From contig JBIPSI010000047.1 of the NCBI GenBank assembly GCA_044070495.1, positions 1 through 29,233 on the forward strand: a DNA stretch of 29,233 bases, read 5' to 3'. The first letter of the stretch is position 1. Each line of letters starts with the position of its first letter. Below, piece by piece: positions 6,001-12,000 of the stretch. A program made the position numbers. Origin of the DNA: Spirulina sp. (lineage in GTDB: Bacteria > Cyanobacteriota > Cyanobacteriia > Phormidesmidales > Phormidesmidaceae).

Positions 6001-9000
6001 AGTTCACGCTGGGGTCACACTGGCGCAAATCTGCAAACTTCCCAAAGAATCGTTTTTCGGATCGGGAGACAAGGGATAAAACCGCTAGGATCACAGCACT
6101 ACTACTAAGCCTAGAAGCCTTGAGGTCGCAAAGTCGCGTCGCAAAGTCGCAAAGCTTGACCTAGGAGAGCAATAGGCAGGGGGATTATGGCTAGCCAAGA
6201 ACAGGTGAGGGAATTTTTGGCCCACTGGTTTCAGTTGGGCAAGCCCGTGGTGCTGGCAGAGGATCGGGGAGAATGCCTGCCGTCACCGATTTTTCACAAA
6301 GGCAGCTACAGCCAATCCTTTGAGAATTGCTGGCACCAAATTATGGTCACCAGCGGCCAGGGTTGCTACCTAGAGGGCACCACCCAAAGCATTGCCACCA
6401 TGCTGACACCAGCCTGGGAAATTACTGCCTGTGCCCGCTGCGAGATGCCGGTGGCCCTGCCGATTCTGGGCCTCAACCCCTGCCCCTGCCCCTGTCACGA
6501 TCTCCAGACCTGGCCCAACACCGAGGTGCCCACCCCCCGGCCAGCGGTGGATGACGATCAGCACCTCAGCGACATTCAGCAGCGTCTAGAGCAGGTCGCA
6601 GAACCCCCATCCCCCTCGCCCAAAGGCCCCTACGAAGCCGAGGACACCAGCGTTTTTTCCTCCTGGCGCAAGATGTCGTGAACCAGAAAGTCGTGGGCCA
6701 TGATCGTGTTGGGGAAGATGGCCCTGGCCTCGGCGAGTAAATCCGAAAGCTGGATGCTGTTGCCCGGAGCATAGCGGGGGCTGAAGTGGGTCATAATCAA
6801 CTGCTTGGCCTGCGCCCCTAGGGCCACCTGGGCGGCCATGGTGGAGGTGGAATGGAGCCGCTGGTAGGCCAGGTCGGCATCCTGGTGGGCAAAGGTGGCT
6901 TCGTGGATCAGCACATCGGCCCCCTTGGCCAGATCGACGGCCCGGTCGCAATAAATCGTGTCGGTGCAGTAGACCAGCTTGCGCCCCACCAGATCCGGCC
7001 CGCAGAGATCGGCCCCATTGATGACTCGACCATCCTCCAATGTCACCCGTTTACCCTGCTTAAGCTGGCCATAGAGGGGGCCGGAGGGAATGCCCAGTGC
7101 CTTAGCCCGCTCCACATCAAACCGACCCGGACGATCCCGTTCCTCCACCCGATAGCCATGGGCGGGTACCCGGTGTTCCAAACGGTCGCAAAAGACGCGA
7201 AAGTCCTCATCCTCAAACACCAGCCCCGGCTCCACGGTGTGGACTTTAATCGGCAGGGTGAAGTGGGTTTGGGAATAGCGGCGACAGGCTTGCAGATAGT
7301 CGTTGAGGGGCTTGGGGCCATAGATATCGATGCGCTGCTGCCGATTGCCCGCCAGTCCACAACTGGCCAGCAGACCCATCAGGCCAAAAATGTGGTCGCC
7401 GTGCATGTGGGTGATGAAAATGCGGCGAATTTGGCTGGATTTGAACTCGCTGCGCAAAAATTGGTGCTGGGTACCCTCGCCACAGTCAAACAGCCACACC
7501 TCCGCCCGCTGGGGCAGCCGCAGCGCCACGCTCGACACATTGCGGGATCGGGTGGGCACCCCAGAACTCGTCCCCAAAAACGTAATTTGCACGGGTCGTT
7601 CACCCCATCGACAACTCTGTTCCCTATCTTGTCACAACCCAACCCGTACGGGCGCACAGCGGTGCGCCCCAACCCAGGGAACCGCCGAGGACGGACTATT
7701 ATGAAACCTGAGTAGATCGCAGATTGACCTGGGAGGACATTGACCATGAATCAAGGACGCTGGATGAAAGCCCTGTTCTGGAACCCTATCGCCGTCTGTC
7801 TCACGGGGGGAGTGATGTTCTCATCCGCCGCCAGTGCCCAAGAGCCGCCGGGGATTTACTACTCCTGGCGTGCCATGGATATGACCGTAGCTCAATGTAT
7901 TGACCAAGCCGACAACGCCCTGGCCTCTCAGGATTTGAACCCTGTGCAAACCGACGCCATCAGCATTGCCGGACAGTCTGACGAGGCGACCGCCGTGTTT
8001 GTGTGCATGGAATCTCCCGGAGAAATCGACTACACCACGGTGATGGTGATTGTGGCCAGCATCGACGATGACCAAGCCGTGACCCTACGGGAAGCCCTCA
8101 AGCAAGCCTTTTGACCTCGCTGTTTAGAACCATGCGCCTAGTGGCCTACCGCTACCACAGTCTGGGATTAGTACATTCCCAAGACAAGGCCAGCCCTCCG
8201 TTTCCAGCGATCCTGGGGGTTGGGTGGCCCGATCAAGATGTACCGTCTGACACGAAGGTTCAGATCTACGAAGACCACGCCATCGCTGCCGACCCCAGCT
8301 ATCGGCCCCAGCTTGCCCAGCTTCTGGCCGATAACCAACGCATGCCCGCCGATCACCTGTGGGTCGAGAACCTGGCCGACCTGGGGGATAGTCCGGCGGC
8401 GGTGCAGCGGTGTTTAGACGACCTCGCCCAGGCGGGAACCACGGTATGCGTCGGGGGCGATCATCCGCTGATCCTCAACCAAGACCTGCCCCTAAACGAC
8501 ACCATGGCCCTAGCCACCGCCATGCAGGATCAGCAACAGCGACGGCAAAAGCAAGCAGGCCATGCGCGTAATCGGCTCCAGGCGTTACCCCCACCGGGTA
8601 AAGCTCCCTACGGCTATCGACGGGGCCAGGGGCGTTATCTGATCGACCGCACAGCCGCTCCGGTGATTACCGCTTTTGTCAACGAATTTTTGCTCTACGG
8701 TTCCCTGCGGGGGGCGGTGCGCTTTGTGGAAAAACGGTTTGGCAAGCGCATTTCGGTTTCCACTGGGCAGCGCTGGCTTAGCCATCCGGTTTACCGGGGC
8801 GATTTGCAATACCGTGATGGTCAGGTGATTCGCGACACCCACGCCGCCATCATCTCCCGCGACGAATCCGCCCAAATTGATCGCCTGCTGCGCCGCAACC
8901 GCCCCCTCCCCCCGCGCACCGCCGGAGCCCCTCGCTCCCTGGCTGGATTGGTGCAGTGCCACACCTGTGGTAGCCCCATGACCGTCTCCACCACCACCGT

Positions 9001-12000
9001 GCGGGGCAAGGCCCAGAGCTATCTCTACCTGCGCCCCACCGCCTGTTCTCAACAGCCCCGCTGCCGCGCCATCTCCTACGACGAGGTGCTCCAGGCCGTG
9101 ATTGCCGACATTTGCCACACCCTGCCCCAGGCCGTCGCCCAATGGCAAACTGCCCGAACCACCGCCGCCCCAATCCCTAATCCCCAATCCCAACTGCAAA
9201 GCCAATTACAGCAGCGGGAATCAGCCCTTAACCAACTTCCTGCCCTGATCGAATCGGGGATTTTGGACGACGAAATCGCCGCCCTGCGCCGCTACAAACT
9301 GCGTGGAGAAATTGCCCAAATTGAACAACAGATCGCCCAACTACCCCCCGTCAACCTGGCAGAATTAGCCCCCTCCGTAGCCCTACCCCAGTTTTGGCTA
9401 GACCTCTCCGAAGCTGAACGCCGCTTCTTTTTCCGCGAGTTCATCCGTCGCGTTGACCTCCATCGCCAGAATGGAACATGGCACATCAACCTCACTTTTG
9501 TGTTCTAGCCTGAGAAGGAATGGGCTTGGCTAACCGATCATCCCGATGGGCAAACTTCACCCAAGCTGATCCGGATCAATGCCCTGTGCCTTCAGTCAGT
9601 CGATGCGCCAATCGGCTGAGTCTGGGCTTCGCTAAGGTCAAAGCAGCCTAAGCGGGCGTTTGAAAAGGGTTGCCTCAGGTGCGATTGGTCGCTAGATCGG
9701 TGCAAATCTACGGGATTTTTGACGACTGAGGCTGACCTCATCGGTATCACTTGGGACGAGCTTCGGCTTTTCAAACGTCCGCTTAGGATTGAGGCTTCCG
9801 CACGGGCTTCTCCAGCATGGGCTTGCCTTGCAGAGCCTCAAAGAGGCCGAGGACAACGCTACCTGTGGGCCATTGGCTGAGCGGTTTGAGGAATTTGTCC
9901 AGGGGGTTGAAGTCTACCAACCAAGGGCCAAAGCAGATGCCGAGGGGTTCTAGATGTTTGCCCTCCAGTTTGTGGTGGAGCCGTCCCTTAGGTTTGAGGT
10001 AGTTGTAGAGCCAGAGGACATCGCTGGTGTTGGGGTCGGGGTCGCCGATGTGGCCCGCTACCGTATCTTGGGCAAAAGACACCAGGGCTGTGAGGTTGAA
10101 TAGACGGCTGCGGTCAATCAGGGTAAGGGTTTGCTGGCGTGTGGGCTGCACCCCTAGCCCTAGGGTATCCAGCAGGTGGGCTAGGGCTTGGAGGGGAACG
10201 GCACTGGTGGTATCGCTCACATCGGGGGCCAGCAGTTGGGCAGGCTGGTTCCAAATGGTGGACACCTCCCCCAGGCGATGGCGCAGCCAGTGGGCCTTCT
10301 GGGTTCCAATCACCTCCTCTAAGGCTGTATCGGTGGGATCTTGCTCAACGCCGCAGAGGAGTTCGAGCAGGGCGATATACTTGCAGCCCAGGCTGTGCCC
10401 TAACCAGAGGTAGCGGTCGTTCTGGCGATAGGGGTGGTCATCGTATCCAGCCTGCCGAGCCAATTCTGGCAGATAGCGCTGGAGCCGTCGCTGTTCCTCC
10501 AGAAGGTCTAGGGCGATGCTCCAGTGGCGGAAACTAAACCGAAAGGGTATGGCGACCACGGTGTAGCCCTCCTGGTAGAGCACCTGGAGCAGGTGACGAT
10601 AACTGAGGGTGGGGAAGGATCCAAACAGGGCACCGCCAATGAACTGAATAATGCCCTTGGGCTGGGGGTGCAGGGCCACCCAACTAAAGGAAACGGGCTG
10701 GAACGAGGCCGAGGGTGGAGTGGCCATGGGGGCTAGCGTTGGGGTTGAAAGTGGGGCTGGCATTGGGGAAAATCTCCTGGATGGCCCCACCCGCAGGTTG
10801 GTGATTGGTCTACGGATGGAGGGTAATCCCAAATCCGACTGACTGCCCCCCAGTATCAACGGGCGAGGAGACCTCGCCCCTACCGTGTGCCCGGTTGAGC
10901 ATCGGGGCTTTCTACTGCGGATTTGGCATGATCTATGGCAGCGATGGAAGGGTCGCTACTGAATCACCGGCTCCATGCGGATGGGGATCTCCAGGCGGGA
11001 CAGTAGGTTGCTGACGGTGCTCAGGTTTTCTGCGCTGGGATCGACCTGGGCCAGGGTTTCGGCCAATACCTCGGCCCGTGCGGCGGGGCTAAGCAGCGAT
11101 AGGTCGATGGCGGGCCGATCCAGAAATTCCGGCACCAGGGGGCGGTTAATTCCCACGTTGTCCACAAAAATTGGATCAATTAGGAAGGAACCGGGTTCGG
11201 GGGTAATTTCGTTTAGCCCCTTGCCGCTGGCTAGTTGCAGGGGGTAGTTGATTTGGTCAAAGTCGCCGCCGCTGTTGGGGAAGGTATTGGGCAGGAACGT
11301 GCCGCGAGTCTCTGGGTTGAGCAGTACCTTTACGGGCGTGGTACTCTGAGGCCGCAGGCGGAACCCTTGGCTGAGGGCGGGCAGAGTGAGCCGCACAAAG
11401 CCGCGAATTTCGAGTTGGGGGTTGGCCGCTGAGAGCAAGCCGGGCTTGGCCAGGTCGGGCAGAAGCTGGAGGGAGGCCGTTTGTTTGGCGGGTACCCGAA
11501 ACCGCGTGGTAAATACGGGCGTTGCAGGGCTGGGGGCCACCGGATTGAGGGACAAAAAGCTGTTGGCCCCAGCCAGGTCATAGGCGACAATCGCGTTGCC
11601 CGCCAGGGTGCGGTCGGGATTGATCGGATTGGGCCGAGTAACGTGAAATTCTAGTTGATAGGTGAAATCCCGATCTTCCAGGTTAGACAGGGTCAAAAAA
11701 TATCCCTGAATAACGCGGCGGGACACGTTACCAAGGGCATTGGCCAGGGACGCCGGAGTGCCAGCGGGCGGGGGCGGGGCAATGCGCTTCACCAACAGTT
11801 CAAAGGTCGTAATTTCCATTGGGGGGGTTCCTAAAACAACGACTCCAATCCCCACCAGGCCGAGCGTTGGGTTATCTTGGTGCTCCAGCCCGTCGGGGTT
11901 GAACCCATTGTGCGGTTGCCCCCAGGGCCTTGCCGTCACCCACGCGGGTACTTTAGCCAACGGGTACCTGGGAATGCGTTAGGTCAAGCCTCCCCCAGCC

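Follow-up and report, generated by a model that had tools for sequence, protein, structure and literature searches.

Locus and domain organization of P0001

The window, by which we mean the whole 29,233-nucleotide stretch of the Spirulina sp. contig analysed here, contains at positions 8132–9508 of the forward strand an intact open reading frame encoding the 458-residue protein P0001. The reading frame, Pfam, an AlphaFold model (pLDDT 82.8, pTM 0.40) and a fold search together describe a derivative of the large serine recombinases that is predicted to be catalytically dead. Its parts follow one another along the forward strand. The N-terminal domain (residues 1–120; 8132–8491) has a degenerate resolvase fold, is acidic (seven Lys/Arg and 16 Asp/Glu) and is the least conserved part of P0001. 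Helix E (residues 121–151; 8492–8584), delineated from the model and the orthologue alignment, leads into the recombinase domain and interdomain linker (residues 152–270; 8585–8941), which are basic (22 Lys/Arg and nine Asp/Glu) and the most conserved. The first part of the zinc-ribbon domain (residues 271–345; 8942–9166) was placed using Pfam and the alignment. Model and alignment define the two remaining parts: a short coiled coil (residues 346–408; 9167–9355) with a conserved tip formed by Leu372, Leu378, Asp379, Arg386, Tyr388 and Glu393, and the C-terminal part of the zinc ribbon (residues 409–458; 9356–9505) with a conserved FWLDLSExERR motif. The predicted zinc ligands are Cys276, Cys279 and Cys305, present in 67 of 67 aligned rows, and Cys311, present in 63 of the 67; Leu300 stands in place of the usual YxC cysteine.

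The large-serine-recombinase layout described in the genome-wide survey's note was recovered by Pfam, the AlphaFold model, Foldseek and a profile comparison against the PDB: P0001 has an N-terminal resolvase fold, a helix E, a recombinase domain and a zinc ribbon that bears a coiled coil. Its Pfam matches (Resolvase, residues 43–140; Recombinase, 175–256; Zn_ribbon_recom, 270–327) all exceed the cut-off, and every Foldseek match of the P0001 model at E ≤ 0.001 is a serine integrase or a resolvase. The best matches in fold and sequence are the phage large serine integrases (SPbeta, A118/LI, PhiC31 and Bxb1; PDB entries 9dxd, 4kis, 9rah and 9iu2), with which P0001 shares helix E, the recombinase domain, the linker, the zinc ribbon and the inserted coiled coil. 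XisF (NF041201) is, as the survey had it, the nearest named family, far below its curated cut-off (E 8.6e-30; 104.1 bits compared with 375 bits). A homodimer prediction for P0001 scored 0.11, and a protein atlas search returned the same family only.

Genomic neighbourhood

Two neighbours are given for context only. The gene for ribonuclease Z (rnz; 6630–7592, reverse strand) is divergently oriented, and a 122-residue protein of no known family is encoded at 7746–8114 on the forward strand, ending 17 nucleotides before the gene. Among the same-genus loci that were parsed (16 of 30), 14 have the rnz adjacency, which agrees with the survey, and 13 have the small gene, which also occurs in a few others. 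The GC content near the gene is 0.57–0.62, compared with 0.567 for the genome. Apart from short matches of the kind expected by chance, no pair of repeats was found around the gene, and a strong inverted repeat downstream, considered as an attachment site, was rejected as it belongs to a 46-copy element. XisF lies inside an excisable, gene-interrupting element bounded by direct repeats, whereas an intact rnz and the conserved small gene flank the gene studied here. No orthologue was found among the plasmids or the best 20 of 78 phage records, where matches reach 20–29% identity. The survey's view that the gene is not on a mobile element is in line with these results. A search of 101 upstream and 121 downstream non-redundant flanks gave no shared DNA motif, just words from neighbouring coding ends and of low complexity, and no RNA holder is listed for the gene region.

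Catalytic residues

PMC2794168 names Tyr6, Arg8, Ser10, Asp36, Arg68 and Arg71 as crucial in Tn3 resolvase. The P0001 family replaces four of these six (Arg8, Ser10, Arg68 and Arg71) and retains Tyr6 and, by our own mapping, the equivalent of Asp36 (Asp48, in 64 of 67 rows). The YxRxS motif is present in none of the 234 orthologue rows, compared with 52 of 56 full-length outgroup relatives that served as a control. The Arg8 slot is occupied by Tyr in 224 of the 234 rows and by Arg in one. Of 230 rows at the nucleophile slot (position +4), 137 have Asp, 51 Glu, 19 Asn and 2 Ser, and Arg8 and Ser never occur together. P0001 is one of the two rows with Ser, as the place of the motif (8147–8161, forward strand) reads Tyr6-Arg7-Tyr8-His9-Ser10. 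The loss of YxRxS claimed by the survey thus stands for the motif, but its account has to be amended for P0001 itself, which has a serine at the nucleophile slot. The alignment marks this serine as incidental, because only two of 230 rows have it and the nearest relatives, P0002 and P0005, have Asp.

At the place of DRLxR, P0001 reads Ala82-Asp-Leu-Gly-Asp86 (8375–8389, forward strand), with acidic residues instead of both arginines. Most of the family reads [E/A/D]-[E/D]-L-G-[D/N/E]; the deep-branching row L114 retains D-R-L and has lost the second arginine. This motif is missing as the survey had stated. P0001 therefore has neither motif that marks active serine recombinases, and on the aligned sequences the catalytic loss is real.

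We consider it very improbable that the protein is still an enzyme with another chemistry, using the conserved Tyr8, the acidic replacements or, in P0001, Ser10. The near-constant Tyr8, the mainly acidic character of the three other slots and the purifying selection that still acts on the N-terminal domain would fit such a reading. The acidic slots, however, vary among Asp, Glu, Asn, Ala and Ser, the whole domain is missing in five genomes and Ser10 is not found in the nearest relatives.

Conservation of the predicted DNA-contacting parts

Between families, identity is 37% in the N-terminal domain, 66% in the recombinase domain, 73% in the linker and 46% in the first zinc part. In a comparison set of active XisF-like proteins it is 39, 32 and 25% for the first three of these; the members of that set are representatives chosen at 50% identity, so its values are biased downwards and the informative feature is solely the reversal in domain rank. 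The N-terminal domain is missing with the remainder intact in G119, G130 and G273 (family f5), G116 (f33) and G033 (f7), and the C-terminal half of helix E (GHARNR) persists in these forms. The inverted conservation and the N-terminal losses support, from sequence, the survey's proposal of a pseudo-recombinase that is kept by the host and probably binds DNA. In the solved integrases, as described in one portion of PMC11722253, the end of helix E and the linker contact the minor groove; the same portion reports that the recombinase domain of LI integrase shows little sequence specificity. The zinc-ribbon hairpin, which reads bases in integrases, is variable in the family. Because of these last two observations, the conservation could instead reflect recognition of DNA shape or contact with a partner protein.

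The phage integrases differ from this family in several respects: the family has neither the nucleophile nor the catalytic arginines, its N-terminal domain can be lost, it has no prophage context and its conservation peaks in the DNA-binding domain.

Distribution, ancestry and selection

The gene is present in 193 of 301 genomes of the class Cyanobacteriia, including 39 of 40 of the same genus, and in none of 78 genomes of other classes; the family also occurs in Nostoc, Calothrix and Fischerella records. It was not found in families f2 (0/30) and f15 (0/7) or in genera g15 (0/22) and g4 (0/11). In g4 three queries still gave no gene, and the rnz loci of this genus lack it within the flanks examined. 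The losses in g4, g15, g28, g57 and f2 count as independent. Its absence from G196 is probably an assembly gap, as rnz is also missing there. Seven genomes gave two matches; in the three that were looked into, those of G112 and G271 belong to one open reading frame and those of G278 to one frameshifted gene.

In the tree the family forms one clade (SH-aLRT 100, stem 0.78) that is sister to 13 active XisF-like proteins. Mapping family labels onto it requires 35 changes, with a minimum of 32 and a shuffled mean of 64.8. The gene is single-copy, mostly vertically inherited, chromosomal and under purifying selection, as a domesticated pseudo-enzyme would be, in line with the vertical, single-copy gene of most Cyanobacteriia that the survey had described. 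The median dN/dS is 0.09 for the N-terminal domain and 0.06 for the rest, with all of the 81 non-independent pairs at or below 0.30.

XisF-like enzymes (NF041201; PMC4874684, PMC11249958) resemble the family in domain order and similar length and are the nearest family and sister clade; identity to an intact relative is about 27% over 336 columns. XisF-like enzymes retain YxRxS and DRLxR, sit in gene-interrupting elements and are sporadic, unlike the P0001 family, which is motif-less, single-copy and chromosomal and has no sign of a flanking element.

Frameshifts interrupt the gene in four genomes, in the C-terminal part in G207 and G278 and between domains in G026 and G419. Together with the lack of a laboratory phenotype they are what would be expected of a decaying mobile-element relic without host function. 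The dN/dS limit observed in 81 of 81 pairs, the presence of one copy across most of the class's families and a tree that follows family labels make this extremely improbable, and the selection data refute it for the family as a whole.

The sister relationship to XisF-like enzymes, which are frequent in cyanobacterial elements (PMC4874684, PMC11249958), would also suit a decoy that occupies the attachment sites of such elements or poisons dimers of their active recombinases. The domain that forms dimers nevertheless shows the lowest conservation, and five genomes have lost it; the source genome has no second PF07508 gene, and heterocyst formers excise such elements though they carry the family. 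A defence gene directed against diverse elements should, moreover, evolve fast, unlike a gene with a dN/dS of about 0.06. We regard the decoy as improbable, and distinctly so.

The probable counterpart in Synechococcus elongatus

Synpcc7942_1166 (WP_011242696.1, ABB57196.1) of S. elongatus PCC 7942 is the probable orthologue, judged by annotation and a PF07508 match: it is the lone COG1961 gene in the PCC 7942 annotation (1326 nucleotides), and the PF07508 search was positive in the S. elongatus control genome. The literature examined calls it a recombinase or a hypothetical protein and leaves catalytic loss unmentioned. It is non-essential, five transposon screens gave no specific phenotype, and its transcript level is low and steady. 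Its value in an RSF1010 screen (−1.20, FDR 8e-8) was set aside, as 708 genes clear that threshold and almost all of the library shows a downward shift. The survey's term 'housekeeping' is too strong for a gene that whole genera lack and whose probable S. elongatus orthologue is dispensable; 'conserved accessory host gene' describes it better.

One reading, unlikely but deserving some weight, is that the protein binds DNA by shape (bent, branched or nicked) or acts as an adaptor in repair, recombination or the integration of transformed DNA. It lies inside the DNA-binding interpretation and competes with its fixed-site version only. The variable base-reading hairpin beside fixed backbone-contact regions is consistent with it, as are a roughly twofold rise of Synpcc7942_1166 after 2 h of UV (log2 0.96, padj 1e-11) and a slight decrease in transformation (−0.41, t −2.0). 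The UV rise is, however, under the authors' fourfold threshold, the transformation effect was not flagged as high-confidence, and neither UV fitness (−0.07 to −0.11) nor conjugal integration (−0.11) is significant. A co-occurrence panel of 80 genomes, 57 of them lacking the gene and 23 carrying it, was picked so that the losses would be informative; RadC is present in 74 of them and does not follow the gene, which counts against this reading, and RadC was rejected as a partner. Three further candidates were discarded because they do not track the gene: the tyrosine recombinase at 16067–17242 of the window (41/80, present in f2 in 6/6) and two small GIY-YIG-like proteins (26/80, absent from the source genome, and 54/80), one of which may be the Synpcc7942_1040 of PMC13756078.

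Relation to HIP1

PMC13756078 (2026) places Synpcc7942_1166 among 110 HIP1-correlated families, and it is cited as a DNA-processing partner of HIP1. On that view the family would read or make the HIP1 (GCGATCGC) repeats, a role for which a protein has long been sought; we think this improbable. The correlation in that study (5 + 5 mismatches in 166 genomes, FDR 0.010; PGLS FDR 0.008, Bonferroni 0.30) is matched by our counts, with the gene in 161 of 215 HIP1-rich and 32 of 86 HIP1-poor genomes. Such a correlation can, however, arise when a few entire clades lack both. The HIP1-rich genera g15 (0/22) and g4 (0/11) do not have the gene, and all 19 genomes (19/19) of f4, a HIP1-poor family, do. 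The source genome and three close relatives have lost HIP1 (104, 72, 80 and 22 sites, compared with 2,296–4,587 in genus sisters), and the source genome has no substitute octamer. In this HIP1-less subclade the dN/dS of the recombinase domain is 0.04–0.10, compared with a median of 0.106 over 14 pairs from the rest of the genus. We reject HIP1 as an obligate link, since HIP1-rich genera lack the gene and the HIP1-less subclade keeps it under unrelaxed selection.

Proposed role

Inactive or domesticated derivatives of recombinases and transposases serve as DNA-binding factors. The P0001 family shares with this class the retention of a mobile-element enzyme by the host, and part of PMC6188088 treats such domesticated enzymes in general. 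In our literature search, with most subscription journals outside its scope, no class-wide dead large serine recombinase was described and the P0001 family was not described as inactive.

Alignments, tree and selection analysis agree on a catalytic loss, a single chromosomal clade of mostly vertical descent and strongest selection on the DNA-contacting parts. Quite probably, the family is a non-cutting host DNA-binding protein derived from a serine recombinase of an XisF-like element through a single capture early in the evolution of Cyanobacteriia. The chemistry would have been lost and the protein kept as a DNA binder. Like serine integrases, P0001 would span a duplex of about 20–25 bp, with the end of helix E, recombinase domain, linker and zinc ribbon all making contact, and should neither cleave nor rejoin the bound DNA. 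The old catalytic fold would be at most a losable module for dimerization or partner binding. The benefit is presumably conditional, as the gene can be spared in the laboratory and several lineages do not have it.

More tentatively, at what we judge to be somewhat under an even chance, this DNA-binding protein recognizes a few fixed chromosomal sites at low copy as a regulator or site-organizing factor. Held with the same reserve, it may be an integrase-built regulator or chromosome organizer of most cyanobacteria that reads one conserved long site through the recombinase domain and linker and might bridge sites with its coiled coil.

Hundreds of cyanobacterial genomes carry the gene under the annotation 'recombinase family protein'. 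Its readings as a cutting enzyme and as a HIP1 partner both look wrong, as the protein should not cut and shows no HIP1 dependence. The family indicates how an integrase scaffold may be reused once its chemistry is lost, with the DNA-binding half frozen and the catalytic fold optional. The proposal can be put directly to the test in S. elongatus, whose probable orthologue is non-essential and for which insertion mutants are available. If it is true, a large serine recombinase became a sequence-specific host DNA-binding factor early in cyanobacteria, and fixed-site binding would give a phylum in which little is known of chromosome organization a further conserved DNA-binding factor.

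Domain architecture and catalytic residues

The gene at 8132–9508 (+) is an intact open reading frame of 458 aa. Its product, P0001, exceeds the Pfam cut-offs for Resolvase, Recombinase and Zn_ribbon_recom in a profile search, and the AlphaFold model (pLDDT 82.8) predicts a resolvase fold, helix E, a recombinase domain, a zinc ribbon and a coiled coil, with uncertain domain placement because the pTM is only 0.40. With this model, Foldseek retrieves exclusively serine integrases or resolvases at E ≤ 0.001. The large-serine-recombinase layout described in the genome-wide survey's note is borne out by these matches, as is its distant XisF match (NF041201; 104 bits, cut-off 375), which places P0001 outside XisF. 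The genome has no second PF07508 gene. Named relatives are found in Leptolyngbya sp. BL0902 (80%) and Nodosilinea species (57–62%).

In the accessible part of PMC2794168, the crucial residues of Tn3 resolvase are Y6, R8, S10, D36, R68 and R71. We aligned 234 (redundant) orthologue rows with three intact controls, after dropping six duplicate loci and database proteins shorter than 400 aa. YxRxS occurs in 0/234 rows, compared with 52 of 56 full-length outgroup relatives used as a control. Position 8 is Tyr in 224 of the 234 rows and Arg in one, while the serine slot, counted without gaps (n = 230), holds Asp (137), Glu (51), Asn (19) or, in two rows, Ser. P0001 is one of these two: it reads Y-R-Y-H-S, without Arg8, and its nearest relatives carry Asp. 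The DRLxR site is occupied mostly by acidic residues around L-G. Fifteen rows match a loose DRLxR pattern somewhere in their first 130 residues, but at the aligned columns the common residues do not include Arg; the deep row L114 retains D-R-L only. Four crucial residues are lost; Tyr6 is retained, as is the D36 equivalent by our mapping. The earlier claim that Arg-x-Ser and DRLxR have gone stands for the family, but the motif of P0001 itself had been misread. Judged from this motif loss relative to the intact outgroup, the family would lack recombinase activity, and P0001 does not belong with the active serine recombinases. That the altered site performs a new chemistry is very unlikely.

Ancestry and inheritance

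A quick IQ-TREE run (90 rows, SH-aLRT support only) groups all 67 dead rows in a single clade (SH-aLRT 100) with a long stem; 13 active XisF-like rows are its sister group (SH-aLRT 99), and it is not nested among them. In a search of 1.84 billion representatives, members of at least 400 aa reach more than 360 bits, compared with 133 for the first intact recombinase.

An alignment search detects family members in 193 of the 301 class genomes (E ≤ 1e-30) and in 39 of the 40 other genomes from the genus. None turned up in the 78 genomes searched from other classes of the phylum or, within the class search, in the families f2 (0/30), f15 (0/7) and f30 (0/3) or the genera g15 (0/22) and g4 (0/11). 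Its absence from genome G196 is probably an assembly gap, since rnz is missing there as well. Frameshifted copies in four genomes (G207, G278, G026 and G419) reflect either decay or assembly error.

Mapping family labels onto the tree requires 35 changes (minimum 32; shuffled mean 64.8). A plasmid collection yielded only distant integrases (10 records, 21–29% identity) and no orthologue, and a phage collection likewise only distant integrases (78 records; 22–25% identity among the 20 matches listed). The proposed single-copy, chromosomal, mostly vertical inheritance is upheld. P0001 and L002, on a faster-evolving branch, stand apart from the other rows of family f1; a degree of transfer or long-branch error may be involved here. 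A role as a decoy against XisF-like elements is improbable and among our last-ranked readings.

Genomic neighbourhood

Among the 16 parsed same-genus loci (of 30), rnz lies near the gene in 14 and a gene for a 122 aa protein in 13. The latter (7746–8114, +) lies tightly upstream in the genus and in some related loci; its product is hydrophobic at the N-terminus and matches nothing in Pfam or NCBIfam. Class-wide, the commonest neighbour is an upstream, co-oriented glyoxalase/VOC-family gene (76 of 157 orthologue loci, a sample biased towards orders that are most closely related to query P0109; for example L096:4160-4891). It is a possible ancestral operon partner and is absent from the flank in the window. 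A motif search revealed no shared non-coding motif in the flanks of orthologue loci. RadC, the tyrosine recombinase of the window and two small GIY-YIG-like proteins were considered as partners, and none tracks the gene.

Downstream, a 140 bp element (9647–9787) with 21 nt inverted ends (95% complementary) looks like a miniature inverted-repeat element; the genome holds 46 full-length copies, the best at 92–97% identity. The intergenic region on the rnz side (7593–7745) contains a short repeat for which BLAST gives 36 hits across the genome. A 391 aa tyrosine-recombinase relative (16067–17242, −) is matched in 41 of the 80 panel genomes, 29 of these at 45–64% identity, including 6/6 of the small-genome family f2, and is perhaps another host-kept recombinase. 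The window also encodes a short 186 aa tyrosine-integrase catalytic domain near the contig start (1522–2082, +; PF00589, E 1e-13) and two proteins without Pfam or NCBIfam matches, of 334 aa (10956–11960, −) and 164 aa (6187–6681, +; conserved beside rnz in the family).

The probable S. elongatus orthologue and HIP1

Synpcc7942_1166 is probably the orthologue of P0001, since it is the sole COG1961 gene in that annotation (1326 nt) and the PF07508 profile matches in the S. elongatus control genome. In the accessible portions of the published screens it is non-essential, with a non-significant conjugal integration score (−0.11) and an RSF1010 maintenance score of −1.20, but 708 genes pass the same bar (PMC10653904). 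Its transformation score is −0.41 (t −2.0, not high-confidence; column meanings taken from sister tables; PMC7125226). Under UV its fitness shows no significant effect, and the transcript is up about twofold at 2 h, under the authors' cut (PMC9659335); fitness in biofilms is flat, and the gene is expressed at a low, steady level (PMC9260433). The accessible parts of PMC4390886, PMC5101192, PMC4874684 and PMC11249958 do not describe the family, and our literature search returned no paper terming it inactive; it has apparently not been described as such in the literature searched.

The available text of PMC13756078 lists Synpcc7942_1166, 'a recombinase family protein', among 110 families correlated with HIP1. 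At a split of 200 sites per Mb, the gene is present in 161 of 215 HIP1-rich and 32 of 86 HIP1-poor genomes, related genomes not being independent. This would favour a function at HIP1, yet the HIP1-rich genera g15 and g4 lack the gene and the HIP1-poor family f4 has it in 19/19. Moreover, the window's genome and its three closest relatives have only 104, 72, 80 and 22 sites (control level), compared with 2,296–4,587 in genus sisters, and retain a recombinase-domain dN/dS of 0.04–0.10 (median 0.106 in other genus members, 14 pairs). Because this domain stays under selection there, the job of the family is independent of abundant HIP1, and we rank the HIP1 reading among the last, as rather improbable.

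This HIP1-less subclade (G000, G389, G402 and G410) inside a HIP1-rich genus amounts to a natural experiment on what HIP1 does. In the window's genome, G000, no octamer is conspicuous as a substitute, and CCGCGG, CGGCCG, GGCGCC, GTCGAC and GCCGGC are strongly avoided (0–1% of expectation). Avoidance of several GC-rich palindromes is what many restriction systems would cause.

Selection and proposed role

Over 81 non-independent pairs, dN/dS has a median of 0.09 in the N-terminal part and 0.06 elsewhere (maximum 0.30); a functionless relic is the most unlikely reading of all. From one family to another, the N-terminal domain is 37% identical, the recombinase domain 66% and the linker 73%, with 46–57% for the zinc ribbon and coiled coil. 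The active XisF-like set shows the opposite order (39, 32 and 25% for N-terminal domain, recombinase domain and linker); as these are mostly 50%-identity representatives, only the reversal is informative. Selection is strongest on the DNA-contacting parts. In P0001 the recombinase domain and linker are basic (22 Lys/Arg, 9 Asp/Glu) and the N-terminal domain is acidic (7 Lys/Arg, 16 Asp/Glu).

The N-terminal domain is dispensable. In five genomes from three families the upstream DNA that was fetched shows none, and natural short forms occur: L121/L218 (G119), L219 (G130) and L220 (G273); L213 (G116); and L215 (G033). Their open frames start within or just before helix E, preceded in G273 by an unrelated stretch, and the remainder is intact. 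Since other f33 and f7 members are full length, this suggests up to three separate losses.

We consider that the family probably binds DNA without cutting it; P0001 would act like a large serine integrase reduced to its DNA-binding half. According to the accessible part of PMC11722253, solved integrases bind the minor groove through the linker and the terminal portion of helix E, and the major groove through the zinc-ribbon hairpin. Our first choice, held tentatively, is that the protein occupies a few fixed sites on the chromosome and plays a regulatory or organising part there, although the LI integrase recombinase domain shows little sequence specificity (same source) and the hairpin varies within the dead family. 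Shape-specific binding, or an adaptor function in DNA handling, is our second choice and a doubtful one. For binding by the family, the natural short forms are handy assay constructs.
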